Source: a virus
Lineage: Duplodnaviria > Heunggongvirae > Uroviricota > Caudoviricetes
Virus record (IMG/VR): IMGVR_UViG_2531839523_000005
Length of the DNA: 37,471 nt
Strand: one strand, 5' to 3'
The first letter of the stretch is position 1. Every line of letters begins with the position of its first letter. Positions 1,095 through 37,471 of the stretch are shown in pieces. Under the pieces are notes generated by a model, which was not told where the DNA came from, did not search any database, and saw only the letters and a list, made by a program, of their open reading frames with translations. The position numbers were made by a program, and so were the translations under genes.

Positions 1095-1172
1095 TGATGC
1101 GCCGCGCGATAAATGCACTCTATCTTGTGCGATAAATGGCATCCACGCGGCGTTTCATTATTTGAAAAAGAA
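1095..1172. other. Prophage right terminus (attR-like) with candidate transposase-binding repeats
   Basis: Begins TGATGCGCCGCGCGATAAATGC, resembling the Mu right end R1 site as recalled; direct repeat GCGATAAATG at 1106-1115 and 1129-1138; GCGTTTCATTATTTGAAAAAG at 1149-1169. Confidence 0.55.
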
Positions 1173-1745
1173 TTACATTTCAGGTTGCGTTATGACAGTC
1201 CCAACAGGGTGATAGCGGTAGATCGTTGACAGTCCAATATCATAGATAATTGCCAGCCGCTTTCTGTCATACCCTTTCTGGAGCAATCTTGCGATCTGCT
1301 CATGCTGCTCCTTCGTCAGTTTCGGGCGACGTCCTCCAACTCTTCCTTGTGCTCGCGCAGCAGCCAGTCCTGCCAGCGTGCGCTCAACTATCAGTTCACG
1401 CTCCATTTCTGCCAGTGCACCCATCATATGAAAAAAGAACCTTCCCATCGGAGTGCTGGTATCGATTGAATCCGTCAGACTGCGAAAATTGACACCTTTT
1501 GCGCGTAGCTCTTCTGTGAGAGCAATGAGGTGTTTCATTCTTCTACCCAACCGATCCAGCTTCCAGACCACCAATGTATCCCCTCTTTTAAGGCACTTTA
1601 AAGCGCGTTTCAGGCCTGGTCGTTCCGACTTGGTTCCGCTCATTTTGTCCTCAAAAATCTGTTCACATCCTGCGCACATTAATGCATTGCGTTGCAAATC
1701 TATGTTTTGGTCATTTGTTGACACACGTATGTAGCCAATCAGCAT
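1173..1745 (-). CDS. gin: Serine recombinase, Gin/Pin/Hin-family DNA invertase
   Basis: [49 protein letters not shown]…; true start taken as the internal Met at 1745 (RBS AAAGGGAG upstream); the longer track ORF 1173-1874 is an in-frame N-terminal extension. Confidence 0.9.
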
Positions 1746-1799
1746 TAAAAATACTCCCTTTTGAGTGGTTAAAGTACTGAGATAATGTGGGGAGGATTT

Positions 1800-1825
1800 G
1801 AGAGATAAACGTTGGTTTGGGGGAA
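1800..1825. other. Candidate gix-like crossover site at outer boundary of left inverted repeat
   Basis: CAGAGATAAACG-TT-GGTTTGGGGGAA resembles the AAACC-NN-GGTTT core of Gin/Hin recombination sites; inner half lies inside the inverted repeat. Confidence 0.4.
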
Positions 1826-2010
1826 GGCTCTGCATTGCCTGTTGGTGTACCGGTTCCATGGCCCACCGCCACACCGCCAGCAGGCTGGTTAAAGTGCGAC
1901 GGGCGCGCCTTTACAAAAGAACAATATCCTGTTCTGGCCAGAGTCTACCCGACCCTCCGTCTTCCCGATTTACGCGGTGAGTTTATCCGTGGATGGGACG
2001 ACGGGCGCAA
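1812..2010. repeat. Left arm of perfect 199-bp inverted repeat flanking the invertible tail-fiber segment
   Basis: 1812-2010 is the exact reverse complement of 3230-3428 (checked at both ends and in the middle). Confidence 0.85.
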
Positions 2011-2329
2011 AGTTGATACAGGACGTAAGTTGCTGTCCGCACAAGGGGCAACGCTGTTAAGAACAGCAATGCTGGATTATTATAACCAGGACACTACGGG
2101 AACCTCGGGGATAGTCGGCATGGGATTCAACAATGAAGATTCCATTACAGACCTTCGTGAGGGCAGCTTTAAAATGCCGGACGGGACAACATTCAGCGAT
2201 CCTGTCGTGGCAATGTCAGACAATGGTATGCAGGCTACTATTCTGACCTCTATCAGAAGCGGGTATGCGAAGGGTATCACTGTCAGACCCCGTAGCATTG
2301 CACTTAATTACATTGTGAGGGCAGTTTAA
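1817..2329 (+). CDS. Alternative tail-fiber C-terminal cassette (silent orientation); first ~65 codons lie in the inverted repeat
   Basis: Translation starts GEGSALPVGVPVPWPTATPPAGWLKCDGRAF… identical to the expressed fiber, then diverges; ends …RSIALNYIVRAV like the expressed cassette (…RNIAFNYIVRAA). No own ATG (track start is TTG inside the repeat). Confidence 0.7.
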   Translation: MGEGSALPVGVPVPWPTATPPAGWLKCDGRAFTKEQYPVLARVYPTLRLPDLRGEFIRGWDDGRKVDTGRKLLSAQGATLLRTAMLDYYNQDTTGTSGIVGMGFNNEDSITDLREGSFKMPDGTTFSDPVVAMSDNGMQATILTSIRSGYAKGITVRPRSIALNYIVRAV

Positions 2330-2943
2330 TGAGTAACACTGCAGTTCTGGATGAAAACGGTATCGCCACTGTAGCGGGCGATATCACTGTATATCACTAT
2401 GACGAGGAAACCCGGGAATACACCTCATCCTCTGTGGAGTATCTCGCCCTTGGGGTGGGTACTCCGGCACATTCGTGCGCCGATGCACCGCCGGAGGCAA
2501 TTTCGGGTTACGTGGTTTGCCGGACTGCCACGCTGAACGGGTGGGAGCATGTGCCTGATCACCGCGGCGAGACGGTATACAGCACGGAGAACGGTAACCC
2601 TGTTCTGATTACCCAACCGGGTGATTACCCGGCGGACACCACCACAAAACAGCCAGCCACGCCATGGGATACCTGGAACGGTGAGGCGTGGGTAACCGAT
2701 ACTGAACGGCAGCGAGCCGCAGAACTGGAGGTTGCCAGACAGCAACGCCAGCAACGGGTGAAACAGGCGATGGCGTCAGTCGATCTTATCAACCTCAAAC
2801 TGCGTGCTGGTCGCAGTCTGACACCAGAAGAAACGGCAAAACTGAACGCCGTGCTGGATTATATCGACGAGCTGAACGCACTGGATATCAGCACGGCACC
2901 TGAAATCAGCTGGCCGGAAGCGCCACTGGCACTTGCCAGTTGA
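2329..2943 (+). CDS. Tail fiber assembly protein (Mu U / Tfa-like), coupled to the silent cassette
   Basis: 204 aa; overlapping ATGA stop-start with upstream cassette; convergent with the expressed fiber gene. Confidence 0.75.
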   Translation: MSNTAVLDENGIATVAGDITVYHYDEETREYTSSSVEYLALGVGTPAHSCADAPPEAISGYVVCRTATLNGWEHVPDHRGETVYSTENGNPVLITQPGDYPADTTTKQPATPWDTWNGEAWVTDTERQRAAELEVARQQRQQRVKQAMASVDLINLKLRAGRSLTPEETAKLNAVLDYIDELNALDISTAPEISWPEAPLALAS

Positions 2944-2949
2944 ACGGTA

Positions 2950-4248
2950 TCACGCCGCCCTCACGATATAGTTAAACGCGATATTGCGGGGGCGGGTTAT
3001 GTTAAAGAATGCTCCGTTTAATTCGGCTTTTGCGCGACTGTTTGTTCCACCCAGAATTACGTACCACAAATAATCGCTACGGTAATTCCCCGCAAACACC
3101 TTATCGCCGCCATAGTCAATATTATTTCCGTTACTCATGTACGAGATATCAAGCGAAGAATCGTTATCGTCATGACCGCCGACCAGTGTACCTTTCTGCC
3201 ATGAAAGCAACTTACGCCCCTCGTCAATCTTGCGCCCGTCGTCCCATCCACGGATAAACTCACCGCGTAAATCGGGAAGACGGAGGGTCGGGTAGACTCT
3301 GGCCAGAACAGGATATTGTTCTTTTGTAAAGGCGCGCCCGTCGCACTTTAACCAGCCTGCTGGCGGTGTGGCGGTGGGCCATGGAACCGGTACACCAACA
3401 GGCAATGCAGAGCCTTCCCCCAAACCAAGGTAATTGAGGACATCTTTTATACTGCCCTTAGCGATAATAGCGCGACCAATAGCTGTAAGGGTTGCCAGCG
3501 CTGCGCGGTCTGCTCCGGTAAAATAAGGCAACCGATCTGCTGCAGTGGCAAGTCCTGCCAGAGCAGTGAGCGTGGCATCTGCCGGTTGTTTTCCGTTTGC
3601 CAGATCGTATGCAGCCTTGACCGCTTTCGGTGTGGCGGCCAGTATTTCAGACGTGCTGTTGATGGCACTGCTCAGTTGTACGGTGCCTTTTGCCGTCAGC
3701 GAGGCAGCAGGCACTCCCGTTATCTGACTCCACGGGTGAGTGTGGCTGACGGGCGCCTTGCCGGCTGCAAGGTCGTATGCAGCCTTGACCGCCTTCGGCG
3801 TGGCAGCCTCAGTTTCTGATTGACTGTCCGTGGCGCTGCTCAGTTGTACGGTGCCTTTTGCCGTCAGTGAAGCCGCAGGCACTCCCGTTATCTGACTCCA
3901 CGGGTGAGTGTGGCTGGCAGGCGCCTTGCCGGCTGCCAGGTCGTATGCAGCCTTGACCGCTTTTGGTGTGGCGGCCAGCGTTTCAGAGGTGCTGTTGGTG
4001 GCACTGCTCAGTTGGGTGAACCCCTTAGCTGTCAGTGTCGCGTCCGGGTGGTTACGGGAACGTACGTGTTCAGCCAGTGACTGTGCGGCTTCCTCCGTTT
4101 TCTTCTTCAGCCATTTCGTCCTGTTTGCCAGTTGCCGGGGGGCTCGATTTGATATCCCGTCTGCACCACCCAGAACCGGATCTGATGTCTCCAGTTGATA
4201 GATATTTTCTTCCCACTTTTCTGTTTCATTCAGGTTTCCCATAATCAA
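2950..4248 (-). CDS. Tail fiber protein (Mu S-like), currently expressed orientation
   Basis: 432 aa; three tandem copies of a ~56-aa PKAVKAAYDLAAGKAP…HTHPWSQITGVPA repeat; C-terminal part shared with and then divergent from the plus-strand cassette. Confidence 0.85.
   Translation of the reverse strand: MIMGNLNETEKWEENIYQLETSDPVLGGADGISNRAPRQLANRTKWLKKKTEEAAQSLAEHVRSRNHPDATLTAKGFTQLSSATNSTSETLAATPKAVKAAYDLAAGKAPASHTHPWSQITGVPAASLTAKGTVQLSSATDSQSETEAATPKAVKAAYDLAAGKAPVSHTHPWSQITGVPAASLTAKGTVQLSSAINSTSEILAATPKAVKAAYDLANGKQPADATLTALAGLATAADRLPYFTGADRAALATLTAIGRAIIAKGSIKDVLNYLGLGEGSALPVGVPVPWPTATPPAGWLKCDGRAFTKEQYPVLARVYPTLRLPDLRGEFIRGWDDGRKIDEGRKLLSWQKGTLVGGHDDNDSSLDISYMSNGNNIDYGGDKVFAGNYRSDYLWYVILGGTNSRAKAELNGAFFNITRPRNIAFNYIVRAA
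3230..3428. repeat. Right arm of perfect 199-bp inverted repeat
   Basis: Reverse complement of 1812-2010; lies inside the tail fiber coding sequence. Confidence 0.85.
3415..3440. other. Candidate gix-like crossover site at outer boundary of right inverted repeat
   Basis: Minus-strand reading CCTCAATTACC-TT-GGTTTGGGGGAA; same inner half as the left site. Confidence 0.35.
3545..4048. repeat. Three tandem 168-bp coding repeats inside the tail fiber gene
   Basis: GTCGTATGCAGCCTTGACCGC recurs at about 3604, 3772 and 3940 (period 168 bp). Confidence 0.8.
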
Positions 4249-4823
4249 CTGCTCCCGTGGTTATAACTGCCATCATGGATGGCGGTATTGTTATAGCGAA
4301 TGGCCACAGACTGATACTCCAGGCTGGCCAGATGGCAGCGGGCCGGTGCAAATGCAGCCAGCGTCTGACGCAGCATCGCGGCCTGATCGTTAGTAATGGG
4401 CTGTTTCAGAATAACGCGATAAACTGCCCAGGCGGCTGCATCTCCATGAACAAACAGTCCGTTATAGCTGCGATTGCCGTCGTAACTGAGACGACCTGTG
4501 CCTTCAATCAGATCCACTTCACCAAAGCCAAAACGGCGGATAACTTCCCGGATTGACCACGGCGTCCCTTTATACCGGTGCAGTTCGATGGCTGCTTTTA
4601 TAAGCATGCGGCGAACATCGTCCGATTCCGCCAGCTCCCAGCCATCGCCAGACAGTGAGAACTGCTCGCCCAGCCATGGCAGCGCGGAACTGTCGACGAT
4701 ATCGACGAGAAAGACCATCAGTACGCTCAGGTCGATGTTATCCAGCCGTCCTGCCAGTCTTCCCAGCGTCCTGAGACTGATATCACCCTCAAGCGGTGGC
4801 GGGAGTTGTAATGGCTCAGTCAT
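4245..4823 (-). CDS. Tail protein (P2 gpI-like / Mu gp48-like)
   Basis: 192 aa; position between baseplate J-like gene and fiber; 4-bp overlaps with neighbours. Confidence 0.7.
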   Translation of the reverse strand: MTEPLQLPPPLEGDISLRTLGRLAGRLDNIDLSVLMVFLVDIVDSSALPWLGEQFSLSGDGWELAESDDVRRMLIKAAIELHRYKGTPWSIREVIRRFGFGEVDLIEGTGRLSYDGNRSYNGLFVHGDAAAWAVYRVILKQPITNDQAAMLRQTLAAFAPARCHLASLEYQSVAIRYNNTAIHDGSYNHGSS

Positions 4824-5919
4824 CAGACACTCCAGTCATGTTAAGAGTGATTGCCGTACAGTTTGCCCATTCGTTTTCTGCCACCACCCGCAGTGCCGGT
4901 GTCACCAGTTCAACCTGGTACACCCCGGAAACGGACAATGCACTGATAATCTGGCTGGGGACAATATCGCGCCCCAGCGTGGCGGCACGTGATGCCACCC
5001 AGTTCTGTATGGCGCTGTTAGCGGCATCTTTTACAGACCTGGCATCCTGATCACGATAGATCGTAATCCTGGCTTCAATGGTGTAATCCACCTTCACTGG
5101 TGTTTTAGCCCGCACTGTATCAGTGAGTGGCCTGACTTTCTCATCAGAGCAGAAACTCTCTACCAGCGTGAGAACACCGCCGTCCGGCAGACCGGTACTG
5201 AGCAGCGGATACAGATCTACGGTCCCGGGAACCGGGGAAAGCACAGCAACATCGACAATGTTGGGATGGGCCTGCATGGCATGAAAGCGGTATGCGCCAC
5301 GGCTTCCGGCATTGGTGAATGACTCCGGGGCCAGCCTGATACGCTCCCGGAGCCTGTCATCGTCTTCCTGTTCTGAACCGCCGGAACTGGCCGTCAGATT
5401 GCTCACCAGCAGGTCGACGTTATCAATCTCATCGAGTAACTGACTGACCTGCGCAGGTTGCCAGCCGTTACCAGCGGTACCGGGTTCGGTACAGGTGGAC
5501 GTGACATTGACCAGCAGCAATCCGGCCTTCAGTACCACATCTGTATCGGTGGCAAAAATAACGCTGTCGGAAGCGCTGACGCGGGTGCCTGCCGGGATCA
5601 GCACATCAATGGCCAGTGCCTCATCTACGGAGAACTGGAGCGTGGTGGTGGCAGGCTGCGCGGCAAGACGGTATACACCAACCAGTTCACCGAGGTAATC
5701 AATCATCGGCTCACGGGCAAAGGCGACCAGATTCTGCTTTGCTGCCTCCTGTACCGCAACCCTGACCAGCATTTCGCGATAGGCCCACAGATCAATCAGC
5801 AGACGTTCTGCCTGTGCCGGGTACAGCGTTTTGCCGGTATCCGCTTCATACTTCGCAATCATTTCTGCCGTAATTTTGTCGGCATCGCGTTCAATAAAAT
5901 CGGGTTCTGTCAGCGCCAT
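4816..5919 (-). CDS. Baseplate J-like protein (Mu gp47-like)
   Basis: 367 aa; synteny and family resemblance. Confidence 0.8.
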   Translation of the reverse strand: MALTEPDFIERDADKITAEMIAKYEADTGKTLYPAQAERLLIDLWAYREMLVRVAVQEAAKQNLVAFAREPMIDYLGELVGVYRLAAQPATTTLQFSVDEALAIDVLIPAGTRVSASDSVIFATDTDVVLKAGLLLVNVTSTCTEPGTAGNGWQPAQVSQLLDEIDNVDLLVSNLTASSGGSEQEDDDRLRERIRLAPESFTNAGSRGAYRFHAMQAHPNIVDVAVLSPVPGTVDLYPLLSTGLPDGGVLTLVESFCSDEKVRPLTDTVRAKTPVKVDYTIEARITIYRDQDARSVKDAANSAIQNWVASRAATLGRDIVPSQIISALSVSGVYQVELVTPALRVVAENEWANCTAITLNMTGVSDD

Positions 5920-6257
5920 AGCAGCTCCTGAGTCCGGGTCTGTCCGTCTGAGCCTTTCCAGCTCACCCGGAGCGTAAGATGTTCGCCGTCGACGGCGGGT
6001 TTAACTGACATAAGCTGGCAGCGGGGCTCCCAGCGCCGGATGGCATCGACGGATTCGCGCACCACATGCGGAATGGCCCGGTCTACAGGCCAGTCGATAT
6101 AAAGATGCAGATTGCTGCCGAACTCCGGGCGATGCGGGTCGCTGCCGCGGGGAGTCCGCAGGATAATTTGAATCGCCTGCCGGATATCATCCAGCCCCCG
6201 GACAATTTCGCCGGGAGCCTGCAGGGCTGGTTGCCAGAATACTGAGGTTGTTTTCAT
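5910..6257 (-). CDS. Baseplate wedge protein (GPW/gp25-like, Mu gp46-like)
   Basis: 115 aa; conserved position. Confidence 0.75.
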   Translation of the reverse strand: MKTTSVFWQPALQAPGEIVRGLDDIRQAIQIILRTPRGSDPHRPEFGSNLHLYIDWPVDRAIPHVVRESVDAIRRWEPRCQLMSVKPAVDGEHLTLRVSWKGSDGQTRTQELLWR

Positions 6258-6311
6258 GGGGGCAGTATTGCCCCCGTGCGGGAACGCTGATATTAAAGGC
6301 GTTTAAAAAGC

Positions 6312-6908
6312 TCAGTGGGAGTGGTGGCTGGAGTTTTCGCCATCAGACAACATACTGCCCGTGGCATGGGCATTCCCTTTAATCTCGATATTGCCATGGA
6401 TGGTCGCGGTAACACCTTCACCACCAGAACCCGCCATGCCTCCTTCGTAAATCAGCTTACCCCTGACACGCAGATCTCCGGTAAGTTCGGTTTCCGGTGC
6501 GTCAATCGTGGCTTTCTGTGTTTTCAATACCACATCAGCACCACACTCAATGACAATATGCTCAATGCCGCCCCGGATGGTCAGAGTGTGCGTCTTCCGG
6601 TTGTAGCTGTACTCTGCACCATCAGCAAACCGGGTTCCCCGGATATTTTTGTCACTGAACGGTGGTTTATCGACGTCTGAATACACCGCGCCCAGAATAA
6701 CACCATCCTCGCCGTTGGCATCGAGCAGCACCTCAACCTGCTCCCCCACGTCAGGGAGCCAGTAATCTTTGTTATCCTGGGTATTGCGCTGCAGCACGTT
6801 AAGCCAGTTTGTGCGCAGGTTATCGCATTCAGGCAGACGAACGCGGGCCTGAACCCTGTCGGCATCAACGGCACTGACCGTACCGACCTGACGAGTGACA
6901 CCAGTCAT
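6312..6908 (-). CDS. Baseplate central spike protein (P2 gpV-like / Mu gp45-like)
   Basis: 198 aa; His-rich C-terminal tip …GENSSHHSH. Confidence 0.75.
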   Translation of the reverse strand: MTGVTRQVGTVSAVDADRVQARVRLPECDNLRTNWLNVLQRNTQDNKDYWLPDVGEQVEVLLDANGEDGVILGAVYSDVDKPPFSDKNIRGTRFADGAEYSYNRKTHTLTIRGGIEHIVIECGADVVLKTQKATIDAPETELTGDLRVRGKLIYEGGMAGSGGEGVTATIHGNIEIKGNAHATGSMLSDGENSSHHSH

Positions 6909-8059
6909 TTTTTCTTCTCCTTAATCACCGTCGATGTACTGCCATCCGGGTGATAAACCGTGAGTTTCTGAGTTTTTTGTTTTTTCCCTCTTGTGACTGG
7001 CCCCCGTGCCACTTCCAGCTCTGTGGTGTAGCCGCTGTTACGGTCAAACGCATGGCGGGCAGTGGTTATGAGCCATGGCCCGGATAACTGCCCAAAACCC
7101 ACCAGTTCAATTTTGTTGCCTGCTGTCAGTTGAGGTGTTCCCGTCAGCGTCAGGGAGCCGTTCTGCTGGTATTCGTTATGTCTGGCCAGTGCTGAATCCG
7201 CTTTAATCCGGGCACTGTCCGGGTCGCTGACGCGGCTGTTAACTTTAAGTGAGTCAGCGCTGGTAACCTTACCACCTTTGAGCTTTTTGTCGCTTTCACG
7301 GGTACCACCATCAGCTTCGTAGACGATCAGTTTTTTACTGCTGCTTTTCTGGTGTTTTACCTTTGCAGATTTATAGACCCGGTTGATGGTGTCACGCAGG
7401 GAAAAGCGGGCCACATCCTGCGGTTTTAACTGCCTGACCGGCTCCTGACTGCGCAGTGTGGCCAGATGAGAAAAAATCAGCTGGTCACTGACCACTTTCA
7501 CTGCATAACCATACTCGCTGGCCAGCCGGCGCAGAAAACCCACGTCGGTTTCAGCATACTGGGTCACCCGGTCGATTCTGATGGACTCAATGCTGCCCAC
7601 CAGTTTCAGTCGGTGCTTTCTGGCAATCCGCCCCGCAACAGCTGCCAGCGTGGTGTTCTCAAAACCACGACTGGTTTTAGTCCGCAGGGCACTGTTAACC
7701 GAGGTGGCCACCCCACGGATAGAAACAACGGAAGCGGGCGAACTCACTTCGATCTCGTCTATAGAGAACGTACCGCAGGACAGCAGCTTCTCGCCCTGAT
7801 AGCCCATTTTCAGCGTCAGCGTGTCACCCTTGCCCGGATACCACTTATCCAGCCAGCGGCCATCGGTGTCGTCCAGCTCCACCTCAATGGTATCGGACTC
7901 ATTTTTGATGTTATCGCTCCAGGTCACACGGGTGACATAAGGCGCGATATCAGAGGGGATGTTTTTCTGCAGATACCACAGAGTGAACACCGGTGTCAGC
8001 ACATCGCTGACGCCGGTTAACGCTGATGTGACTTGCGCAGTGCTGTTTATCTCAGCCAT
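6905..8059 (-). CDS. Tail protein (P2 gpD-like / Mu P-like)
   Basis: 384 aa; conserved position after tape measure cluster. Confidence 0.75.
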   Translation of the reverse strand: MAEINSTAQVTSALTGVSDVLTPVFTLWYLQKNIPSDIAPYVTRVTWSDNIKNESDTIEVELDDTDGRWLDKWYPGKGDTLTLKMGYQGEKLLSCGTFSIDEIEVSSPASVVSIRGVATSVNSALRTKTSRGFENTTLAAVAGRIARKHRLKLVGSIESIRIDRVTQYAETDVGFLRRLASEYGYAVKVVSDQLIFSHLATLRSQEPVRQLKPQDVARFSLRDTINRVYKSAKVKHQKSSSKKLIVYEADGGTRESDKKLKGGKVTSADSLKVNSRVSDPDSARIKADSALARHNEYQQNGSLTLTGTPQLTAGNKIELVGFGQLSGPWLITTARHAFDRNSGYTTELEVARGPVTRGKKQKTQKLTVYHPDGSTSTVIKEKKK

Positions 8060-8262
8060 GGGGCAATATCCTCTTCTGTACGGGCTTCTTCAGCCTCAAT
8101 CACCGGGATCAGTAACAACAGCCCGGAGGGCAGCACCGGCGTGATGGCCACGTGCGGATTGGCGGCAATAATCCGGGGATAGCCCAGCGGGTCACCGTAG
8201 TACTGCCATGCCAGCGAATCCCAGCGCTCTCCGTCACGGGTAACATGTTCAAGAAACATCAC
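8047..8262 (-). CDS. Small tail protein (P2 gpX-like)
   Basis: 71 aa; tightly packed between neighbours. Confidence 0.55.
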   Translation of the reverse strand: MMFLEHVTRDGERWDSLAWQYYGDPLGYPRIIAANPHVAITPVLPSGLLLLIPVIEAEEARTEEDIAPWLR

Positions 8263-29397: not shown

Positions 29398-29449
29398 ATA
29401 TTTTGAGTCTTTGTAAAAGGTTATCACATATCGCAAAAGAGGTATGCAG

Positions 29450-29758
29450 ATGAGTAAGACGAATGTTTCAAGCTCCGGCAGTCGCATCCTCCGGGTACTC
29501 AAAGCGCTGCGCGGTCATGCCCTGAACGGTATTTCTAACGGTGAACTGGCGACAGCACTGCACGAGTCACCGGCAAACATCAACCGGGCACTCAACACCC
29601 TCATTGAAGAAGGGCTGGCTCTGAAACTGGAGAACGGACGTTTTGCACCGGGCATCCAGTTACTGCAGATCGCCATGGCCCACAGTAACGAGATGGCACG
29701 TGCACAGGATCGTATTAACGAAATTAACCAACGTGTCATTTCAGGTAGTCGTTTGTAA
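29450..29758 (+). CDS. Hypothetical winged-helix-like protein
   Basis: Start taken at second Met (better RBS spacing); …ISNGELATALHESPANINRALNTLIEEGL…. Confidence 0.45.
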   Translation: MSKTNVSSSGSRILRVLKALRGHALNGISNGELATALHESPANINRALNTLIEEGLALKLENGRFAPGIQLLQIAMAHSNEMARAQDRINEINQRVISGSRL

Positions 29759-29768
29759 GGAGTAATCA

Positions 29769-30689
29769 ATGGGACGTACCAAATCACCGATTAACACTGA
29801 ACTGAACGCCGATGTACCGCTGTCGGATGATCTCAACGTCAGCCTGAATGCCATGACACAGCATCGCATGGAGATCATGCAGCAGTTTGGTGATGGACTG
29901 CCTTATGAACGTGAACGCATCGTTCACGAAGCACGTTTTTATATGGCGCAGAGTGCTGAATCTATGTTGGAAGCGGGTAAGCGGCTGATCATCTTAAAAG
30001 AAAATGAACCGCATGGTGATTTCACAAATATTCTGGAAAACGACCTCGGATTAGCACCACAGGTAGCTCGTCGCATGATGCAGGCCAGCGTGAAATTTCT
30101 CGGCAATGGAGATGAACAGCCAAAACGCTCAGCGCTGAGCGTTTTGGGAAAAACCAAGTTATATGAACTGATGGTTCTGGATGACGAAGAACTCGACGCA
30201 TTAGCTGATGGTGGAACCGTCGCCGGTGCAACGCTTGATGATATTGATCGCATGACCAGCCGCGAACTGAAGGCCGCCCTGCGTGAAGCGCGCGAAACCA
30301 ACGCAGCTCAGCAACAGGTGCTTGCCGGAAAGGACGAAAAAATCAACGAACTGGCCACAAAACTGGAGAAGAAATCGCGCCTGCAACCTCCGCCGCCAGA
30401 CGAAGAACTGAAAAAATTGCGGGCGGAAGTGACGGCATTAGCGGTTGAGGCCGAATCGGCTATCGCCGTCCGGCTGTCCAGTGTTTTTGAGACCCTGTGT
30501 GAATACTGCACCAAAAACATGATCGATACCCCCAGAGATTTCATGGCCGGTCTGGTCTGCCAGATTGAACGCAGTGTTCATGCATTACGTGAGACGTTTG
30601 ACCTTGAGGCCGCTCCATCGGGTAACGATGCCCCCGCCTGGCTGACCGAACCGGAACCTGAAATCAACCGACCGGAGGATATGCAGTAA
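29769..30689 (+). CDS. Hypothetical early protein with coiled-coil and Pro-rich linker
   Basis: 306 aa; TAAGGAG RBS. Confidence 0.55.
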   Translation: MGRTKSPINTELNADVPLSDDLNVSLNAMTQHRMEIMQQFGDGLPYERERIVHEARFYMAQSAESMLEAGKRLIILKENEPHGDFTNILENDLGLAPQVARRMMQASVKFLGNGDEQPKRSALSVLGKTKLYELMVLDDEELDALADGGTVAGATLDDIDRMTSRELKAALREARETNAAQQQVLAGKDEKINELATKLEKKSRLQPPPPDEELKKLRAEVTALAVEAESAIAVRLSSVFETLCEYCTKNMIDTPRDFMAGLVCQIERSVHALRETFDLEAAPSGNDAPAWLTEPEPEINRPEDMQ

Positions 30690-31006
30690 TGAATACGAAT
30701 AACACACAAAATACCCTGATGGACAGCCCGGAGGCACTGGGGCACGCACTGTGTAATCTGCTGCCGGAGATGGTGCAGGGTTTCCGCGTGGTGACCCCTT
30801 CCGGTGAAATCTGCGTACCCGCACAGGAGACGCACCCGTTTGTACTGACGATGGAGGTGATGCTGATGCAGCAGATAAGACGTCTGCAGAATCAGTCAGC
30901 ATTACGCCCGGTAGTTGCACCGCAACCGGTAAATACCGTGGTGAAAACCTGCGATGGCGAAACACTGTGCGACCTCGCCAGAAAAATTGCCGCCAGAATC
31001 GGATAA
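30689..31006 (+). CDS. Hypothetical early protein
   Basis: 105 aa; start overlaps upstream stop. Confidence 0.45.
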   Translation: MNTNNTQNTLMDSPEALGHALCNLLPEMVQGFRVVTPSGEICVPAQETHPFVLTMEVMLMQQIRRLQNQSALRPVVAPQPVNTVVKTCDGETLCDLARKIAARIG

Positions 31007-31021
31007 CAGGGAAGACAAGCT

Positions 31022-32791
31022 ATGACCCCGGCACTGACTGAAAAACTGGTTGAAACAGCCCGCGCGGCACGTGACGCGGGGCATGGTAAACGCGGTGCAA
31101 TATACGACGCTGCCTGTGCTGAACTTGGCATGTCCCGCGCCACTCTGCTGCGCAGGCTGAAGGAGGTATCTGTGACTGATAAACGCAAAAACCGCGCCGA
31201 TGCCGGGCGCAGCGCCCTGACCCGCGACGAAGCCGCGCTGATATCTGCCACACTGCGTGAGGCCACCCGCAAGAACGGTAAGCGTCTCTATTCCATCGCA
31301 GATGCAGTGGAAACCCTGCGGGCTAACGGCTTTATCACCGCAGGCAGAACAGATGAAACCACCGGTGAGTTTTTCCCGTTGTCTGAAGATGCCATCAGCC
31401 GTGCTCTGCGTAACTATGGCCTGCACCCGGAACAACTGGATGCCCCTGCACCACATACCGAAGTGGCCAGTCTGCATCCCAATCATGTCTGGCAGATTGA
31501 CGCCTCACTCTGCACGCTTTACTACCTGAGCAATGGACATAAAGGGCTGCAGGTGATGGACAGCGCGAAGTTCTACAAGAACAAGCCCGCTAACCTTGCC
31601 CGTATCGCCAGTGACCGCGTGTGGAGTTACGAGATTACCGACCATGCCAGCGGCTGGATTTACGTTGAGTATGTGACGGGCGCGGAATCAGGTGAGAACC
31701 TGTGTTCTGTGCTTATCAACGCCATGCAGGAGCGTGGCGGCGCAGACGTGCTGCACGGCGTGCCGAAAATACTCTATCTCGACCCCGGCTCGGCAAACAC
31801 CGCGGGTATGACGAAAAACATGTGCCGCTCACTGGGCATCGACCTGATAGCGCACAAGCCGCATAACGCCCGCGCCACCGGACAGGTGGAAAAGGCGCGT
31901 GACATTATCGAACGCAAGCTGGAGCCGGGTCTGAAGTTCCGGCCGGTTCACAGTCTGGAAGAACTCAACGCGCTGGCCGCGAAATGGCGCAGCCACTTTA
32001 ACGCCACGGCTGTTCACAGCCGCCACGGTAAAACCCGCACGGATATCTGGCTGAAGATTACTGCTGAGCAGCTGAAAAAAGCGCCTTCCGTTGAGGTATG
32101 TCGTGAACTGGCTGTGGCGGCACCAGAACTCCGCAAAGTCACGCCAAAACTTCGTGTCTCGTTCCGGGGCACTGAATTTGACGTATCAACGGTACCGGGC
32201 GTACTGGTTGGTGAAAAACTGATGATTACCCGTAACCCATGGCGCAGCGATGTGGCACAGGTGGTTCTGACCGGTGAGGACGGCCACGAGACGTTCTTCC
32301 TGGTCGAAGAGGTCAGAAAGAACAAGTTTGGCTTTGCTGAAGGCGCGGCGGTATTTGGCGAAAGTTACAAAGCCCTGCCGGAAACCCCGGCACAGATGGC
32401 GGCAAAAGAAACCGAAGCGCTGGTTACCGGTACAGACAACGCCGCAGATGCAGCCGCCGCACGCAAGGCGAAGGCGCTGCCGTTCGGCGGGCGGCTTGAC
32501 CCGTATAAACATATCGACGACACCACACTTCCGGCCTATATGCCGAAGCGTGGTCAGGCCTCTGACGTACGCGGGCCGCGCACTGAACAACGTCCCATGA
32601 CTCATGTGGAGGCCGCGAAAGCCCTGCGCGATAAGTTCAGCGCCGACGGCCTTACCTGGACGCCGGAACATTACCGCCAGTTAACGGCACAGTACCCGGA
32701 CGGCGTACCGGAAGCCGCACTGGATGAAGTCATGGCCACGCTGACCACACCGGCCCGCAGCAGTGTTATCAGCATTGTTAACGGCAACTGA
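31022..32791 (+). CDS. DDE transposase (MuA-like transposase A)
   Basis: 589 aa; N-terminal HTH, integrase-core-like HPNHVWQIDASLCTLYY … ILYLDPGSANTAG. Confidence 0.85.
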   Translation: MTPALTEKLVETARAARDAGHGKRGAIYDAACAELGMSRATLLRRLKEVSVTDKRKNRADAGRSALTRDEAALISATLREATRKNGKRLYSIADAVETLRANGFITAGRTDETTGEFFPLSEDAISRALRNYGLHPEQLDAPAPHTEVASLHPNHVWQIDASLCTLYYLSNGHKGLQVMDSAKFYKNKPANLARIASDRVWSYEITDHASGWIYVEYVTGAESGENLCSVLINAMQERGGADVLHGVPKILYLDPGSANTAGMTKNMCRSLGIDLIAHKPHNARATGQVEKARDIIERKLEPGLKFRPVHSLEELNALAAKWRSHFNATAVHSRHGKTRTDIWLKITAEQLKKAPSVEVCRELAVAAPELRKVTPKLRVSFRGTEFDVSTVPGVLVGEKLMITRNPWRSDVAQVVLTGEDGHETFFLVEEVRKNKFGFAEGAAVFGESYKALPETPAQMAAKETEALVTGTDNAADAAAARKAKALPFGGRLDPYKHIDDTTLPAYMPKRGQASDVRGPRTEQRPMTHVEAAKALRDKFSADGLTWTPEHYRQLTAQYPDGVPEAALDEVMATLTTPARSSVISIVNGN

Positions 32792-32801
32792 GGAGGGAAA
32801 C

Positions 32802-33968
32802 ATGCTGGTACTGAAGCAGCAACTGAAAGAGGCCCGTATTCCACAGGCGGTGGTGGCGAGAGCTGTCGATGTTTCTGAGGCCACGCTGGCCCAGATTGTG
32901 AATCATAACGCGTGGCCCCGCACCAGCCCCGGAGAAGTGCGCCGGCGTCTTGCGTCCTGGCTGGAAAGTCAGGGGATTGATACAACGAAGAGTTTTGATG
33001 CTGTACAGGGCGCGGCCACGCCCCGTACAGCGGGTACCACAGATAAAACGAGCCTCAGTGAGGAAGAGAATATGTTACTCAAAAAACAGGTGTTATTTCC
33101 AGCAACCAAAAAAGCGTTTGGTCTTTTCCGTGACCCGTTCGCCGACGAAGCCATGCAGGGTTCTGATGATGTGTTCACCACCCCGGATATTCGCTACGTG
33201 CGTGAGGCGTTGTACCAGACAGCCCGTCATGGTGGGTTTATGGCCGTCATCGGTGAGTCCGGTGCGGGTAAATCCACGCTGCGCCGCGACCTGACTGAAC
33301 GTATCAACCGCGAGAATGCGCCGGTAATTGTTATCGAGCCATACATCATCGCTATGGAAGACAACGATGTGAAAGGGAAAACCCTGAAGGCAGCAGCGAT
33401 TGCCGAAGCCATTATCAGTACCATCGCACCACTGGAAAGCATCAGACGCAGTCAGGACGCCCGCTTTCGCCAGTTGCATCGCGTCCTGAAAGACAGCAGC
33501 CAGGCGGGGTTCAGCCACGTTCTGGTGATTGAGGAGGCCCACAGTCTGCCCATTCCGACACTGAAACACCTCAAACGCTTTTTTGAGCTGGAGTCCGGTT
33601 TCAAAAAACTGCTGTCCATCGTGCTGATTGGCCAGCCGGAACTGGCGACAAAACTGTCTGAACGCAATATGGAAGTCCGTGAAGTCGTTCAGCGCTGTGA
33701 GGTGGTCGAACTTCTGCCTCTGGACAATAACCTTGAAGAGTTTCTGACGTTCAAACTGCAACGGGCCGGTAAACAACTGACGGACATTATGGACGCCAGC
33801 GCAGTGGATGCCATACGTGCCCGCCTGAGCAATCCGGGAAGTCATCGTAAAAATATGGTCAGCCTGCTGTATCCGCTGGCCGTCAGTAACCTGGTAATAG
33901 CCGCCATGAATCTGGCCGCTGAAATCGGGGTTCCACAGGTCAACGCTGACGTTGTCAAAGGGGTTTAA
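32802..33968 (+). CDS. AAA+ ATPase transposition protein B-like
   Basis: Walker A GESGAGKST; N-terminal HTH; AGGAGGG RBS; follows transposase. Confidence 0.8.
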   Translation: MLVLKQQLKEARIPQAVVARAVDVSEATLAQIVNHNAWPRTSPGEVRRRLASWLESQGIDTTKSFDAVQGAATPRTAGTTDKTSLSEEENMLLKKQVLFPATKKAFGLFRDPFADEAMQGSDDVFTTPDIRYVREALYQTARHGGFMAVIGESGAGKSTLRRDLTERINRENAPVIVIEPYIIAMEDNDVKGKTLKAAAIAEAIISTIAPLESIRRSQDARFRQLHRVLKDSSQAGFSHVLVIEEAHSLPIPTLKHLKRFFELESGFKKLLSIVLIGQPELATKLSERNMEVREVVQRCEVVELLPLDNNLEEFLTFKLQRAGKQLTDIMDASAVDAIRARLSNPGSHRKNMVSLLYPLAVSNLVIAAMNLAAEIGVPQVNADVVKGV

Positions 33969-33970
33969 TA

Positions 33971-34240
33971 ATGAAATCCACCACAGGTATCAACCAGCAA
34001 ATCAGCAAAGTGCAGTCAGCCATTATGGCGCTTAAGGCGACGAACACGGATGTACAAAGCATCACCATCAGGGGTAACAAACCTGTCATCCGCGTTTCCC
34101 GGAGTGCGCATTGCATGCGCATGCTTGAGCAGGGAAAGGCCTGTTATCTGTATACCGGTCATGACCACAGGGGACATTTCCGTCAGGGCGTTTTCGAACT
34201 GCACGGCTGTCGCGTCGTGTGGCCGGAATCTTTGTGGTAA
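33971..34240 (+). CDS. Hypothetical early protein
   Basis: 89 aa. Confidence 0.45.
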   Translation: MKSTTGINQQISKVQSAIMALKATNTDVQSITIRGNKPVIRVSRSAHCMRMLEQGKACYLYTGHDHRGHFRQGVFELHGCRVVWPESLW

Positions 34241-34267
34241 TCAGCACAACAGGAGGAGTCATAAAAT

Positions 34268-34798
34268 ATGGCAAAAAGTACAAAAGGGGCAAAACGTATC
34301 AAAGCCGCAGCAGCACTCTGGGTGCCGGGGACACGCGAAGAGGTCATTGAGGGAATCAGACTGCTTGGTGACGCGCAACGTGAACTGGTCAGGGCTGAAA
34401 CAGAAATGAATGACACCATTGGCGACATCACTGCACGTTATGCCCCGCTCACCGAGAGCCTGAAAAAACGCATGGCCGAACTGCAGTCCGGTATCCAGAC
34501 ATGGTGTGAGGCGCACCGTGATGAACTGACCGGCAACGGGAAGGTGAAGTTCGCTAACCTCACCACCGGCGAGGTGCAGTGGCGAAACCGTCCGCCGTCA
34601 GTCAGCATTCGCGGGGCGGATAATGTCATTGAACTGCTGAGACGTCTGGGGCTTGAGCGCTTTATTCGTGTAAAGGAGGAAATAAATAAAGATGCCATTC
34701 TGAATGAAAAAGAGGCTGTGAAAAATATTCCCGGTATTACCATAAAAAGTGATATTGAGGATTTTTCAATAATTCCTTTTGAGCAGGATGTGCAGTAA
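34268..34798 (+). CDS. gam: Gam-like host-nuclease inhibitor (Ku-like DNA-end-binding protein)
   Basis: MAKSTKGAKRIKAAAALWVP… and …ITIKSDIEDFSIIPFEQ match Mu Gam as recalled. Confidence 0.85.
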   Translation: MAKSTKGAKRIKAAAALWVPGTREEVIEGIRLLGDAQRELVRAETEMNDTIGDITARYAPLTESLKKRMAELQSGIQTWCEAHRDELTGNGKVKFANLTTGEVQWRNRPPSVSIRGADNVIELLRRLGLERFIRVKEEINKDAILNEKEAVKNIPGITIKSDIEDFSIIPFEQDVQ

Positions 34799-34895
34799 AC
34801 ACACCACGTTAATTATTTAATAAAAACATTTTCTTTTTTATTCCGGCGTCAGCGCCGCGGGCTTCTGCACGCCGGAAACAGAGGAGAATTAAATT

Positions 34896-35090
34896 ATGAT
34901 ATTTAAATGTATTCAGTGCGAGAGGGATATAACAGCCCTGCGTTTTCACAGCGCCATCGCCGTGATGTCCGGTAAGTATCACATACCTGCAGTACGTGTC
35001 ACCCTGGTCTGCCCGTACTGCAGCCAGCATTTTTCGGCGGACGTGCCCGTCATGGAATTCTCCCGCCCTGACAGGGAGGACGCGCAATGA
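34896..35090 (+). CDS. Small zinc-ribbon-like protein
   Basis: 64 aa with CxxC … CxxC. Confidence 0.45.
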   Translation: MIFKCIQCERDITALRFHSAIAVMSGKYHIPAVRVTLVCPYCSQHFSADVPVMEFSRPDREDAQ

Positions 35091-35359
35091 TTACCCCACA
35101 GGAAGCACGACAGCGCACCCGAACTCTTGTTGAACACTATGTCAACGAGTGTGAATGCCGCGACCTCACCGATGTGAAGCACGTCCTGACGGCGCTAATC
35201 AGCATGGCCACACAGGCCATTGTGGCGACCAACGGAAAGGAGGCTGCCCTGCAGGTACTGATGAACACACTCACCCACACGGCAGAGCATGAGGTGCCGT
35301 ACCGGATGGAAACCACTGCAGAAGGCGGCCTGCACATCACCGTCAGCCGGAAGCACTGA
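35087..35359 (+). CDS. Hypothetical early protein
   Basis: 90 aa. Confidence 0.4.
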   Translation: MITPQEARQRTRTLVEHYVNECECRDLTDVKHVLTALISMATQAIVATNGKEAALQVLMNTLTHTAEHEVPYRMETTAEGGLHITVSRKH

Positions 35360-35368
35360 GGGCGCGGC

Positions 35369-35665
35369 ATGACACGAAACACCGAACTCACCCGCACCGC
35401 CCTCTACCGTCTGGCCCTGCAGCGTTTCGGGCCGGACGCACAGGCCCTGAAACTGGCAGAAGAGGCCGCTGAACTGGCGGCCAGTGCCGCCCGCAACCTG
35501 AACGGACAGGGCAGCGAAAGTGACCTCGCGGCAGAGCTGGCAGACGTGGAAATCATGACAGAGCAACTGCGCCTTCAGGGGATGGACCGGCTGATTGACT
35601 TCCACAAACAGAAAAAACTGGAACGTCTGGCTGCACGACTGGGCGTGATTTACACGAACGAGTAA
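35369..35665 (+). CDS. Small all-alpha protein, possibly MazG-like NTP pyrophosphohydrolase
   Basis: …LAEEAAELAASA…ELADVEIMTEQL… resembles MazG-type motifs; not verified. Confidence 0.4.
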   Translation: MTRNTELTRTALYRLALQRFGPDAQALKLAEEAAELAASAARNLNGQGSESDLAAELADVEIMTEQLRLQGMDRLIDFHKQKKLERLAARLGVIYTNE

Positions 35666-35679
35666 CCGGGAGGCATTCA

Positions 35680-35895
35680 ATGGCTGACATACTCAGGGAA
35701 ATCACCGCATGGACACTGATTCTTACTGGCCTGGCGACATGCCTCAGTGCGGGGGCAGCCCTGGCTGCCCTGCTGATGCACATAACAACACAGTGGTTAT
35801 GGGAAAAGCTTAAAGCAGCATACAGCCTGAAAGAGCTGTCCGACGCTGTCCGGGCATGGAAACGGCAGAAAAATACCGGAGATACAGAACAATGA
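35680..35895 (+). CDS. Small membrane protein
   Basis: 71 aa; one TM helix; GGGAGG RBS. Confidence 0.4.
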   Translation: MADILREITAWTLILTGLATCLSAGAALAALLMHITTQWLWEKLKAAYSLKELSDAVRAWKRQKNTGDTEQ

Positions 35896-36575
35896 CAGAC
35901 CAGAATAAACACATTGAGAAACTGAAAAAGTTGCTGGCGCTGGCCGCATCCGGCAACCCGCACGAGGCCGCTCTGGCACTGCGCCGAGCCCGTAAACTGA
36001 TGGATGTTCACGGCATCACACATTCCGACATTGCTATGAGTGATATTGATGAAACCATCAGTCACTACTGGCCGACAGGCAGTCTCCGTCCACCGCGCTA
36101 CATGCTGGGCCTGATGAACATCATCCGCGAGGTATTTGGTGTTAACTCCATCATTCACCCCGGCACGCATCCGTCTGTGGGGTTCTACGGCAACCGGGAA
36201 CGTGCGGCACTGGCTGCATACACCTGGGAAGTGCTGGCCCGTCAGCTGAAAAAGGCGCGTCAGCAGTATATCAGTGCACAGAACAAAAGAATAAAAACCG
36301 CCACCCGCACCAGCCGTGGAGACCAGTTTGCCGAAGGCTGGGTGCTGGCCGTTATCAGTGAAATACAGTCCTTTGCCCTGACCGATGATGAGCGTGAATT
36401 GATGCAGCAGTGGCTGGAACATAAATACCCGCAGACGCAAACCACCAGGGCGCGTAAACCGGGAAGAAGCCGCAATGGCGACGCCTCGCGCTATGCGGGG
36501 TTTCGTGAAGGGCAGAACGTCAGACTGCACCGCCCGGTCAGTGGGCAGGAACAACAGAAACTGGAGGCCAGATGA
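35892..36575 (+). CDS. DUF2786-like protein
   Basis: Start at MTDQNKHIEKLKKLLALAASGNPHEAALALRRA (35892). Confidence 0.55.
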   Translation: MTDQNKHIEKLKKLLALAASGNPHEAALALRRARKLMDVHGITHSDIAMSDIDETISHYWPTGSLRPPRYMLGLMNIIREVFGVNSIIHPGTHPSVGFYGNRERAALAAYTWEVLARQLKKARQQYISAQNKRIKTATRTSRGDQFAEGWVLAVISEIQSFALTDDERELMQQWLEHKYPQTQTTRARKPGRSRNGDASRYAGFREGQNVRLHRPVSGQEQQKLEAR

Positions 36576-36802
36576 TTACGCTATCAGGTAAAAGCCGGAA
36601 ATTAAAAGCCTGCCGAATATCTGCCAGATACCTTTTTGCCCGCGCCTTTTTTAAGAACGTCAGGCCGGGGATCACAATTGGTGTTATTGCCGGACGCGAA
36701 CAGGTTGAAAAATACATGTCAGGTGCATGGTGGAATAACGACCCTGTCATTGCTGCCCGTAATATTCATATCGAATGGGGAGGTATTCAGAATGACTACT
36801 GA
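36572..36802 (+). CDS. Hypothetical small protein
   Basis: 76 aa. Confidence 0.35.
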   Translation: MITLSGKSRKLKACRISARYLFARAFFKNVRPGITIGVIAGREQVEKYMSGAWWNNDPVIAARNIHIEWGGIQNDY

Positions 36803-36998
36803 AACCATTGTCTGTTTTCTTTTCTGGTATATGTACGCAGGATCATGCAGCGCAAGACTTCATCGTTCCCTGGGCTATGGCAGGCACTACGACACCGCGC
36901 ATTACATCCTGTACATGACCGCCGTCATGTTGTTCTGGCCAGTCACCCTGCCAGCTGCAACCGACATTGTTGCCGACAGACTGAAAAAAAGGAGATGA
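36792..36998 (+). CDS. Small membrane protein
   Basis: Start at MTTETIVCF (36792), GGGGAGG RBS. Confidence 0.4.
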   Translation: MTTETIVCFLFWYMYAGSCSARLHRSLGYGRHYDTAHYILYMTAVMLFWPVTLPAATDIVADRLKKRR

Positions 36999-36999
36999 T

Positions 37000-37177
37000 A
37001 TGCAGAAAAAACGCCTGATACAGCTTATCCATATTGCCCGTAATGAACTGGGTATGGATGAAGACACCTACCGCCAGATGTTACAGGGGCTGACCGGTAA
37101 AGCCTCAACCAAAGGAATGGATACCACACAACTAAACTGCGTGCGTAAGCGTCGTCTCAGCACCGTCTGGCAGATCC
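37000..37177 (+). pseudogene. GemA-like (Mu gp16 / DUF1018-like) gene, interrupted by IS insertion
   Basis: N-terminus …LIQLIHIARNELGMDEDTYRQMLQGLTGKASTKGM… fits the GemA pattern; reading frame runs into the IS terminus and stops after 65 codons. Confidence 0.5.
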
Positions 37178-37471
37178 TGAAATTCCTGAGAGAATAGTGG
37201 ACACCAAATATGGTGGACGCTATTCATGAAATCATTAACCGCAGTGCGTAAAAAAAGCCCTAATTATCCCGTTGAGTTCAAAATCAAAATGGTGGAACTC
37301 TCGCATCGACCAGAGATCTCCGTAGCGCAACTCGCTCGTGAGCATGGGATCAACGATAATTTGCTGTTCAAGTGGCGCCAGTACTGGCGCGAAGGAAAAC
37401 TACGTCCTCCTTCAACAACAGAAAACAACGTGCCTGAGCTGCTCCCGATAACACTTGATGCCGAAGATGTT
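37178..37471 (+). mobile_element. IS3-family insertion sequence, left end (continues beyond window)
   Basis: Terminus TGAAATTCCTGAGAGAATAGTGGACACC resembles the IS3 left inverted repeat (AATAGTGGACAC core) as recalled. Confidence 0.6.
37226..37471 (+). CDS. IS3-family transposase OrfA (HTH), 3' end beyond window
   Basis: MKSLTAVRKKSPNYPVEFKIKMVELSHRPEISVAQLAREHGINDNLLFKWRQYW…. Confidence 0.65.
   Translation, partial: MKSLTAVRKKSPNYPVEFKIKMVELSHRPEISVAQLAREHGINDNLLFKWRQYWREGKLRPPSTTENNVPELLPITLDAEDV

Follow-up and report, generated by a model that had tools for sequence, protein, structure and literature searches.

Early and late arms of a BcepMu-type transposable prophage in rihA of Escherichia coli

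Organisation of the locus

The stretch of DNA analysed here (the window; 37,471 nucleotides, with E. coli as the host of its prophage) starts inside a fragment of IS1 (1–330), a non-phage sequence that shares 99.4% identity with the IS1 of P1, SfIV and others. It is followed by codons for residues ~52–299 of the host gene rihA (331–1094, minus strand; NCBIfam RihA equivalog, 2.2e-152). The prophage interrupts this gene at 1094/1095 and IS1 truncates its 3′ end; the DNA adjoining 1095 is rihA, not an IS. From 1095 to ~26.2 kb the prophage reads leftward (late arm), while from 29.2 kb to 37144 it reads rightward (early arm), with a ~3-kb accessory and immunity region between the two. Both the gene strands and a sign change of AT and GC skew at ~26 kb bear out the original prediction that early and late operons diverge from a central region.

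Next to the right end lies a gene for a Gin-like serine DNA invertase (1173–1745, minus strand; Resolvase and HTH_7 domains), and beyond it an invertible tail-fibre segment (1809–3431) bounded by 229-nt inverted repeats (1809–2037 and 3203–3431) whose arms are 96% complementary. The segment matches the description of the invertible region of prophage Phi2 in the ST131 strain EC958 (PMC4134206), and its alternative tail-fibre cassettes (1817–2943) are the only plus-strand ORFs within 1173–26234. All genes in this interval that match late genes of BcepMu or Mu (invertase, tail, head, terminase, lysis) are on the minus strand, so that the late genes do run leftward to the invertase and the right terminus, as had been proposed. 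The late structural genes (2950–23873, minus strand, transcribed right to left) were assigned from collinear tblastn matches to BcepMu gp27–gp52 (31–76% identity) and from the annotation of PhiKM and ZH063. They encode the small terminase (23328–23873), large terminase (21736–23331), portal (20240–21736), F (19438–20286), G (18977–19435), protease/scaffold (17647–18762), capsid (16679–17632), sheath (13751–15178), tube (13230–13751), tape measure (9143–12355), a P2-type baseplate (4245–9143) and a fibre (2950–4248). Upstream of them, on the same strand, a lysis cassette with two small genes (23873–26234; Holin_2-3 and SLT domains, matches to BcepMu gp21–gp26) comprises a holin (25884–26234), an SLT endolysin (25141–25881), an Rz-like spanin (24507–25259), a membrane protein (24184–24510) and a further small gene (23873–24184).

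The central accessory region (26365–28642) differs in gene content among relatives. Three of its ORFs belong to PHROGs of unknown function (26365–27093, plus; 27069–27473, minus; 27472–27687, plus) and the fourth encodes a Dam-type methyltransferase (27788–28642, plus; MethyltransfD12); a comparison of these ORFs with known defence systems gave no match except the methyltransferase itself. A gene for a CI-type HTH repressor (28759–29115, minus strand; HTH_3, 4.6e-15, Phage_CI_repr and repressor PHROGs) follows, with a terminator-like hairpin at its 3′ side (28649–28673, minus strand; an 11-bp stem, then a T run). The early operon (29209–37144, plus strand; Pfam, PHROGs and the RefSeq annotation of relatives) contains genes for a Ner-like HTH protein (29209–29397), a wHTH regulator (29444–29758), a DUF3102 protein (29769–30689), an rve transposase (31022–32791), an AAA_22/ExeA-type ATPase analogous to MuB (32802–33968) and Gam (34268–34798), as well as ORFs at 30689–31006 and 33971–34240, seven further ORFs (34896–36998; six small ones and one DUF2786 protein) and the 5′ part of gemA (37000–37144), which encodes the GemA N-terminus. 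The original prediction had the repressor, the Ner-like gene, the transposase, B and Gam all reading rightward; this applies to all but the repressor, which is divergent from the early operon and shares the direction of the late genes.

Phage ends and target duplications

Homology to relatives starts at the right end of the phage (1095–1138, plus strand), which consists of a terminal TG and two direct GCGATAAATG repeats (1106–1115 and 1129–1138), presumed to be transposase binding sites. Alignments to many E. coli genomes with differing flanks begin at 1093–1095, and we therefore confirmed position 1095 as a real terminus. The GCGATAAATG repeat is present in the window solely at 1106 and 1129, and the right end of BcepMu has the same architecture, a terminal TG followed by two repeats nearly identical to these. 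The opposite end, finishing in CA, was seen in relatives only, so that TG...CA termini with repeated transposase sites are here composed of a right end in the window and a left end from relatives; such termini together with an rve transposase are a trait of the BcepMu family (PMC2628397). The layout of the window recurs in intact copies from ZH063, FDAARGOS_1267, cS51a and L4_E1441, each flanked by a 6-bp target duplication (TCTCGA, ATTATT, CACCGA and GGTGAC) at a different chromosomal site. Together with the varied flanks in many genomes, this is insertion of the transposition type at many sites with a short duplication. The duplication is 5 bp in Mu, and a 5-bp duplication had been expected here too, which the four relatives contradict; for the window copy we predict a 6-bp duplication, CGTAAG. 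Transposition uses TG...CA ends, paired GMGATAWWT repeats and 6-bp target duplications.

An alternative explanation for the switch of orientation at 26.3–29.2 kb is that two prophage fragments, one with late and one with early genes, were joined side by side, and the mixed orientation and variable content of the central genes would suit such a junction. However, the search of this region for a second phage end found neither the terminal repeat (zero GCGATAAATG matches at ≤1 mismatch) nor a TG end motif, in keeping with the original prediction that no phage end lies there. The junction is also continuous in PhiKM and the same in BcepMu, and four complete copies at different sites each have one 6-bp duplication spanning both arms. 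These duplications rule out two juxtaposed fragments, an origin to which we assign a negligible probability, and uphold the view that the two arms form a single genome. Its limits are now fixed, with the right end at 1095 and the left end past the IS that closes the window (see below). As the window includes neither the left end nor mor nor the matching duplication, the completeness of this copy is judged from its relatives only.

Relationship to BcepMu, Mu and KS10

The prophage is 99.4–99.5% identical in nucleotide sequence over 3296–37144 to Escherichia phage PhiKM (PQ738613, classified Bcepmuvirus), whose record is permuted and partial. The window copy differs from PhiKM in its location in rihA, in an IS66-family insertion in gemA and in a tape measure gene with three 261-bp repeats. 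Phi2 of EC958, which has the same tail-fibre inverted repeat as described, is probably another close relative. Bcepmuvirus prophages have been reported in ST131, and a common E. coli prophage, found in ST131 strains among others, is nearly identical to the one in the window; overall, close relatives were found in ~520 of 5,426 complete E. coli genomes.

Compared with Burkholderia phage BcepMu (NC_005882) by tblastn, 34 genes matched, every one on the opposite strand and in strict reverse order, so that gene order and orientation agree across the whole genome, the inversion of the early region with respect to Mu included. Matches in the early operon follow the order gp16, gp12, gp10, gp09, gp08, gp02. 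The transposase, in which only the rve domain was detected, is 68% identical to BcepMu gp09, and its AAA_22 partner is 59% identical to gp08; the pairing of an rve (Tn552/IS-type) DDE transposase, rather than MuA, with an ExeA-type AAA+ ATPase is that of Bcepmuvirus. Also common to the two phages are a cassette with a holin and an SLT endolysin, head genes of the Mu type, a P2-type tail and TG ends with paired GMGATAWWT repeats; BcepMu has its single Mor at the left end, the position that mor occupies in intact relatives of the window phage. BcepMu and the window phage differ in that the latter has a Mu-like Gam, a Dam methylase in its centre and no matches to BcepMu gp03–gp07 and gp13, and in that its right end carries the Gin invertase and invertible fibre segment where BcepMu has an acyltransferase. 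Collinearity with BcepMu and the opposite relative orientation in Mu agree with the original prediction of a BcepMu-type layout with an inverted left-end region, which the passage of PMC3091646 citing Summer et al. (2004) gives as a trait common to the BcepMu family. We conclude that the window very probably holds one BcepMu-type (genus Bcepmuvirus) transposable prophage in rihA, its two arms diverging from a central immunity and accessory region. The divergent layout is real but ordinary, being a published and already known hallmark of the BcepMu family, and with a prophage nearly identical to a deposited phage it has little significance beyond correct annotation.

In principle, an inversion that arose recently in one strain of a Mu-like prophage, through IS elements or the invertase, or an assembly error could produce the same layout; the prophage does have IS1 and IS66 elements on its flanks and encodes a Gin-like invertase. 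Against this, the layout recurs in the ~520 E. coli genomes, PhiKM, KP12 and BcepMu, and among 63 related gamma- and betaproteobacterial loci with a detectable large terminase, drawn from many genera, 60 have this gene on the other strand and upstream of the transposase. Moreover, the IS elements do not border the inverted block but are found outside it or at its far end. We consider a recent inversion or misassembly extremely improbable.

Escherichia phage Mu (NC_000929) is likewise transposable and temperate. Its repressor also diverges from its early operon, in which a ner-like gene, transposase, ATPase, gam and gemA follow one another as in the window phage, with mor next as in the intact relatives. 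The terminase, portal, F and G genes are related, and both phages have a Gin/G-segment. A rearranged member of the Mu lineage proper (Muvirus) would fit these likenesses, the identity of Gin (76%), Gam (62%), large terminase (49%) and F (47%) to Mu proteins, and the presence of GemA and Mu gp27 domains. However, tblastn with MuA, MuB, Ner and c of Mu gave zero matches in the window. The four transposase domains of MuA (DDE_2, HTH_Tnp_Mu_1, HTH_Tnp_Mu_2, Mu-transpos_C) and the C-terminal domain of MuB were found in the Mu proteins themselves, but not in the transposase of the window, which has only an rve core, or in its ATPase. The 6-bp duplication and the P2-type tail, as in BcepMu, are also unlike Mu, as is the single Mor/C homologue of BcepMu-type phages, where Mu has two. 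Finally, the late genes and gam/gemA map in opposite relative orientation to Mu, in which early and late genes all read from the left to the right end, the early block being flipped relative to the late genes. Membership of the Mu lineage is thus very unlikely, if not quite as remote as the preceding alternative, and the BcepMu-type assignment is preferred. Burkholderia phage KS10 (PMC2628397) is also Mu-like with an inverted left part. Its flipped block runs through lysis, terminase, portal and F, which come after mor on the early strand, so that regulatory genes interrupt the head module; we found this arrangement in three related loci (L037, L043 and L072). In contrast, the window phage is broken between mor and the lysis genes, and its genes from lysis to G directly adjoin the other head genes on the late strand.

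Candidate regulatory sites and the IS66-family insertion

Between the repressor gene and the early operon we identified a candidate early promoter (TTGATA-17-AATAAT, 29133–29161, plus strand; 10 of 12 positions matching the consensus), the spacer of which contains a perfect 18-bp palindrome, TGCTCATAATTATGAGCA (29139–29156), unique in the window. The CI-type repressor probably binds this putative operator inside the promoter. Once repression is lifted, one rightward operon would be transcribed, with the Ner-like regulator, the rve-type DDE transposase, its AAA+ partner, Gam and GemA, and then a Mor-family activator. In all four intact relatives, mor (Pfam Mor, 1e-43) is the next gene after gemA, beside the left end, as a single copy and the last early gene, and Mor lies downstream of the transposase on the same strand in 68 related loci.

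Upstream of the lysis operon lies a candidate late promoter, TTAAAATC-N20-ATGCTG (26259–26292, minus strand), with exact sister matches on the same strand at 18792–18825, 12875–12908 and 6263–6296. All four sites fall in late-arm intergenic gaps and face leftward, with 0.02 matches expected, a count that is circular within the window because the motif was built from these sites; at 6263–6296 the motif ends 5 nt ahead of a start codon, which is odd for a promoter. In 21 further loci from Enterobacterales, the holin gene is preceded by the same site with zero mismatches and a varying spacer. When two mismatches were allowed, related loci yielded 87 matches compared to ~41 in shuffles, mostly noise, and evidence from these loci was restricted to lysis-position matches at ≤1 mismatch. 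BcepMu itself matches only with two mismatches. Independent support for the motif comes solely from the lysis-promoter position in other genera.

The single Mor-family activator would act in trans on late promoters, and targets of a trans-acting protein can face either way. The four promoter-like sites (26.3, 18.8, 12.9 and 6.3 kb) would drive leftward transcription toward the right end in units for lysis and head, head completion, tail, and baseplate and fibre. Compared with Mu, the segment running from the repressor to mor is turned round in its place between the left end and the promoter of the lysis genes. Tentatively, and with somewhat less than an even chance in our estimate, TTAAWATC-N20-AWRCTG may mark Mor-dependent late promoters in enterobacterial BcepMu-type phages, with layout breakpoints bounding promoter-defined units and module orientation free. 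The breakpoints lie between mor and lysis in the window phage and BcepMu, and between G and I in the three loci with the KS10-type order and as described for KS10. If this reading holds, two things would free the orientation: late operons that are self-contained and driven by one activator in trans, and an rve transposase without the enhancer-binding domain of MuA, which ties the operator region of Mu to its left end.

The original prediction that the window holds no recognisable Mor/C-like activator was corroborated by tblastn, which found no Mor/C homologue in it. Comparison with intact gemA revealed that an IS66-family element (37145–37471, plus strand; terminal GTAAGCG repeat, tnpA accessory gene from 37226, IS66 TnpA 2e-24) interrupts the gene at 37144/37145 and that the window ends inside the element; mor, the next gene in intact relatives, would lie beyond the insertion, which explains its absence from the window. 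The element would separate mor from the early promoter, and the insertion probably cripples late gene expression, leaving this copy unable to switch on its late genes. All 522 E. coli matches end at 37144, and an identical IS66 junction was absent from all complete E. coli genomes in the collection. The element itself is 99.4% identical to IS66-family copies in Stx2 phages.

Divergent arms and the BcepMu-type layout

In the late arm, every gene with phage homologues between 1173 and 26234 lies on the minus strand, running from right to left through holin, SLT endolysin and spanin, a Mu gp27-type small terminase and the large terminase, portal, F and G, protease/scaffold and capsid, sheath, tube and tape measure, to a P2-type baseplate, the fibre and a Gin-like invertase. 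The only plus-strand ORFs in this interval are alternative fibre cassettes of the invertible segment. The genes from 29209 to 37144 are on the plus strand. The first encodes a 62-aa HTH protein with a match to BcepMu gp16 and a weak one to HTH_35 of the Ner family; after it come IclR-type wHTH and DUF3102 proteins, an rve DDE transposase, an ATPase of the AAA_22/ExeA type, Gam, a set of seven ORFs (a DUF2786 protein and six small ones) and the first 48 codons of gemA. These strands bear out the divergence of early and late arms proposed in the original prediction, and the base skews change sign at approximately 26 kb.

Fifty-three window ORFs were compared by tblastn to Burkholderia phage BcepMu (NC_005882). 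Every one of the 34 matches is on the opposite strand and their order is exactly reversed; the window thus corresponds to BcepMu read backwards. Window positions 26267 down to 2950 match BcepMu 11552 up to 33077 in the late arm, and 29209 up to 37197 match 9086 down to 1003 in the early arm. Compared to Escherichia phage Mu (NC_000929), the late genes map minus to plus while gam and gemA map plus to plus, which makes the early block inverted with respect to the late one. Both comparisons agree with the BcepMu-type layout, with an early region inverted relative to Mu, that had been suggested from the sequence. MuA, MuB, Ner, c, Mor and C of Mu found no tblastn match in the window. MuA carries the domains DDE_2, HTH_Tnp_Mu_1, HTH_Tnp_Mu_2 and Mu-transpos_C, whereas the window transposase, similar to BcepMu gp09, has the rve core only. 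The right ends are also alike (window, TGATGCGCCGCGCGATAAAT; BcepMu, TGAAGCGCGGCGCGATATTT), and TGAGATAWWT repeats are found at the mor-proximal ends of both the window-type phage and BcepMu. The divergent layout is a published, defining feature of a known phage family: PMC3091646, citing Summer et al. 2004, describes the inverted left-end region as a shared trait of the BcepMu family, and PMC2628397 characterises its members by TG...CA termini and an rve transposase.

The repressor had been expected to read rightward, but the CI-type repressor gene (28759-29115) is on the minus strand. It is co-directional with the late genes because the whole repressor-to-mor block is flipped; BcepMu gp17 (repressor) likewise points the same way as the BcepMu late genes.

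The invertible tail-fibre segment is flanked by 229-nt inverted repeats (1809-2037 and 3203-3431; 96% complementary), the same inversion repeat as in the EC958 prophage Phi2, and the adjacent Gin-like invertase shares 76% identity with Mu Gin. As the segment is now oriented, the fibre gene and the fibre assembly gene (2329-2943) are encoded on opposite strands. The tape measure gene contains a 261-bp tandem repeat (9744-10539; 3.0 copies, 95% identity) and is exactly 261 and 522 nt shorter in relatives, which suggests that repeat copy number varies and that tail lengths possibly differ with it.

Termini, target duplications and the IS66-family insertion

Position 1095 is the first base of the right end, which reads TGATGCGCCGCGCGATAAATG... 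and contains two copies of the repeat GCGATAAATG, at 1106 and 1129. This repeat occurs nowhere else in the window, and scanning 26.3-29.2 kb with at most one mismatch gave no match, consistent with the earlier reading that no phage end lies in the junction between the arms. Four intact relatives speak to whether the arms are one genome or two juxtaposed prophage fragments: ZH063 (inserted in ssuB), FDAARGOS_1267 (adjoining yibQ), cS51a (between torZ and cmoB) and L4_E1441 (inside a lambdoid tail gene). The layout of the window is reproduced exactly in all four, which measure 37.4-38.5 kb and have TG...CA ends and a 6-bp direct target duplication (TCTCGA, ATTATT, CACCGA and GGTGAC; loci L005, L008, L009 and L010). 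Since a single duplication brackets both arms in each, one transposition event moves them together, and the one-genome reading was upheld. The duplication of Mu is 5 bp, and 5 bp had been anticipated here as well, but 6 bp was found in four of four relatives; the window's own duplicated hexamer is predicted to be CGTAAG (1089-1094).

The window opens with an IS1 fragment (1-330) and residues ~52-299 of the host gene rihA (331-1094). The prophage is inserted within rihA, whose other end is truncated by the IS1 copy; 764 bp of rihA thus separate IS1 from the phage end, which had been thought to adjoin the IS. After 36,050 bp of visible phage DNA, an IS66-family element (37145-37471) begins with a GTAAGCG terminal repeat, followed by IS66-family TnpA coding sequence.

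No Mor/C-like activator had been recognised in the window, and tblastn likewise found none. Intact relatives carry a single Mor-family gene (Pfam Mor, 1.1e-43; product 54-56% identical to BcepMu gp01 and 30-35% to Mu Mor and C) after gemA (Pfam GemA, 2.7e-40), and the left end comes next. Because the IS66-family element is inserted after gemA codon 48, the remainder of gemA, together with mor and the left end, is expected on its far side; the corresponding stretch is 1,783 bp long in ZH063 and 829 bp in the FDAARGOS_1267 type. With mor at the end of the early operon, the insertion, which would cut mor and the left end off from that operon, probably blocks mor expression and hence late gene activation. 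A search of 5,426 complete E. coli genomes found this IS66/gemA junction in none. The ST131-type copy ZH063 (L003, 7435-8232) has two additional ORFs between mor and the left end, one of 210 aa with no family match in NCBIfam or PADLOC and one small; FDAARGOS_1267-type copies have neither.

Candidate regulatory sites and the central region

The repressor gene is separated from the first early gene by 93 bp, in which lies a good rightward candidate promoter of the sigma-70 type (29133-29161; 10/12 matches). The spacer between its -35 and -10 is a perfect 18-bp palindrome, TGCTCATAATTATGAGCA (29139-29156), which occurs once in the window and is a likely repressor operator. A strong terminator-like hairpin lies downstream of the repressor gene.

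The motif TTAAWATC-N20-AWRCTG is present in four late-arm intergenic gaps, all on the minus strand (26259-26292, 18792-18825, 12875-12908 and 6263-6296), compared to 0.02 expected by chance in the window for a pattern derived from these same four sites. Independent support comes from relatives: the holin-upstream site recurs exactly in 21 other Enterobacterales loci and with a single mismatch in a further five, and its 20-nt spacer varies between them; these were the only exact matches in 1.55 Mb, where we calculated ~0.1 from the motif information content. BcepMu has versions with two mismatches at equivalent positions, before gp19 and gp49. We infer that the sites may be Mor-dependent late promoters, with the caveat that the 6.3-kb site stops 5 nt short of a start codon. 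Because Mor is trans-acting and every late unit would be transcribed from a promoter of its own, it would make no functional difference which way the early block faces with respect to the late genes.

The central stretch that separates the lysis genes from the repressor (26365-28642) differs in content between relatives and looks like an accessory-gene hot spot. It holds three ORFs of unknown function and Dam in the window; in cS51a and L4_E1441 (L009, 26929-29904), Dam is accompanied by a nucleoid-associated protein and by one of 401 aa that weakly matches KwaA.

Distribution of the layout and of the prophage

Using a transposase alignment as query against one genome per species, relatives were found in 246 genomes and 80 loci were kept. 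A large terminase was found within 10 kb in 63 loci, and in 60 of these it is upstream of the transposase and oppositely oriented, matching the window; Mor is downstream on the transposase strand in 68 loci. The remaining three (L037, 1-21734; L043; L072) carry early genes, mor, lysis genes, terminase, portal and F on one strand. Protease and capsid are on the other strand past the repressor in L037 and L043, together with the sheath in L037, and the L072 contig ends just past the repressor. This arrangement fits the description of KS10 in PMC2628397 as having a head module interrupted by regulatory genes. The alternative break point (G/I) coincides with the window's second candidate late-promoter site.

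The element is a common E. coli prophage: the final 2.6 kb of its visible sequence (34500-37144) was found at ≥80% coverage in 522 of 5,426 complete E. coli genomes, with all 522 alignments ending at 37144, and Bcepmuvirus prophages have been reported in ST131 E. coli. Megablast aligns 3296-37144 at 99.4-99.5% identity with Escherichia phage PhiKM, classified in its record as genus Bcepmuvirus, and Klebsiella 'phage KP12' and Phi06_2974 B are ~85-87% identical to the window phage. The PhiKM record (L001, PQ738613) is a permuted partial genome; its phage left end is at 20577, and the ~330 bp before it (20247-20577) carry the annotation of a host-like ABC permease. The KP12_2 record (L002, OM835952) is placed in Vequintavirinae despite its BcepMu-type sequence.
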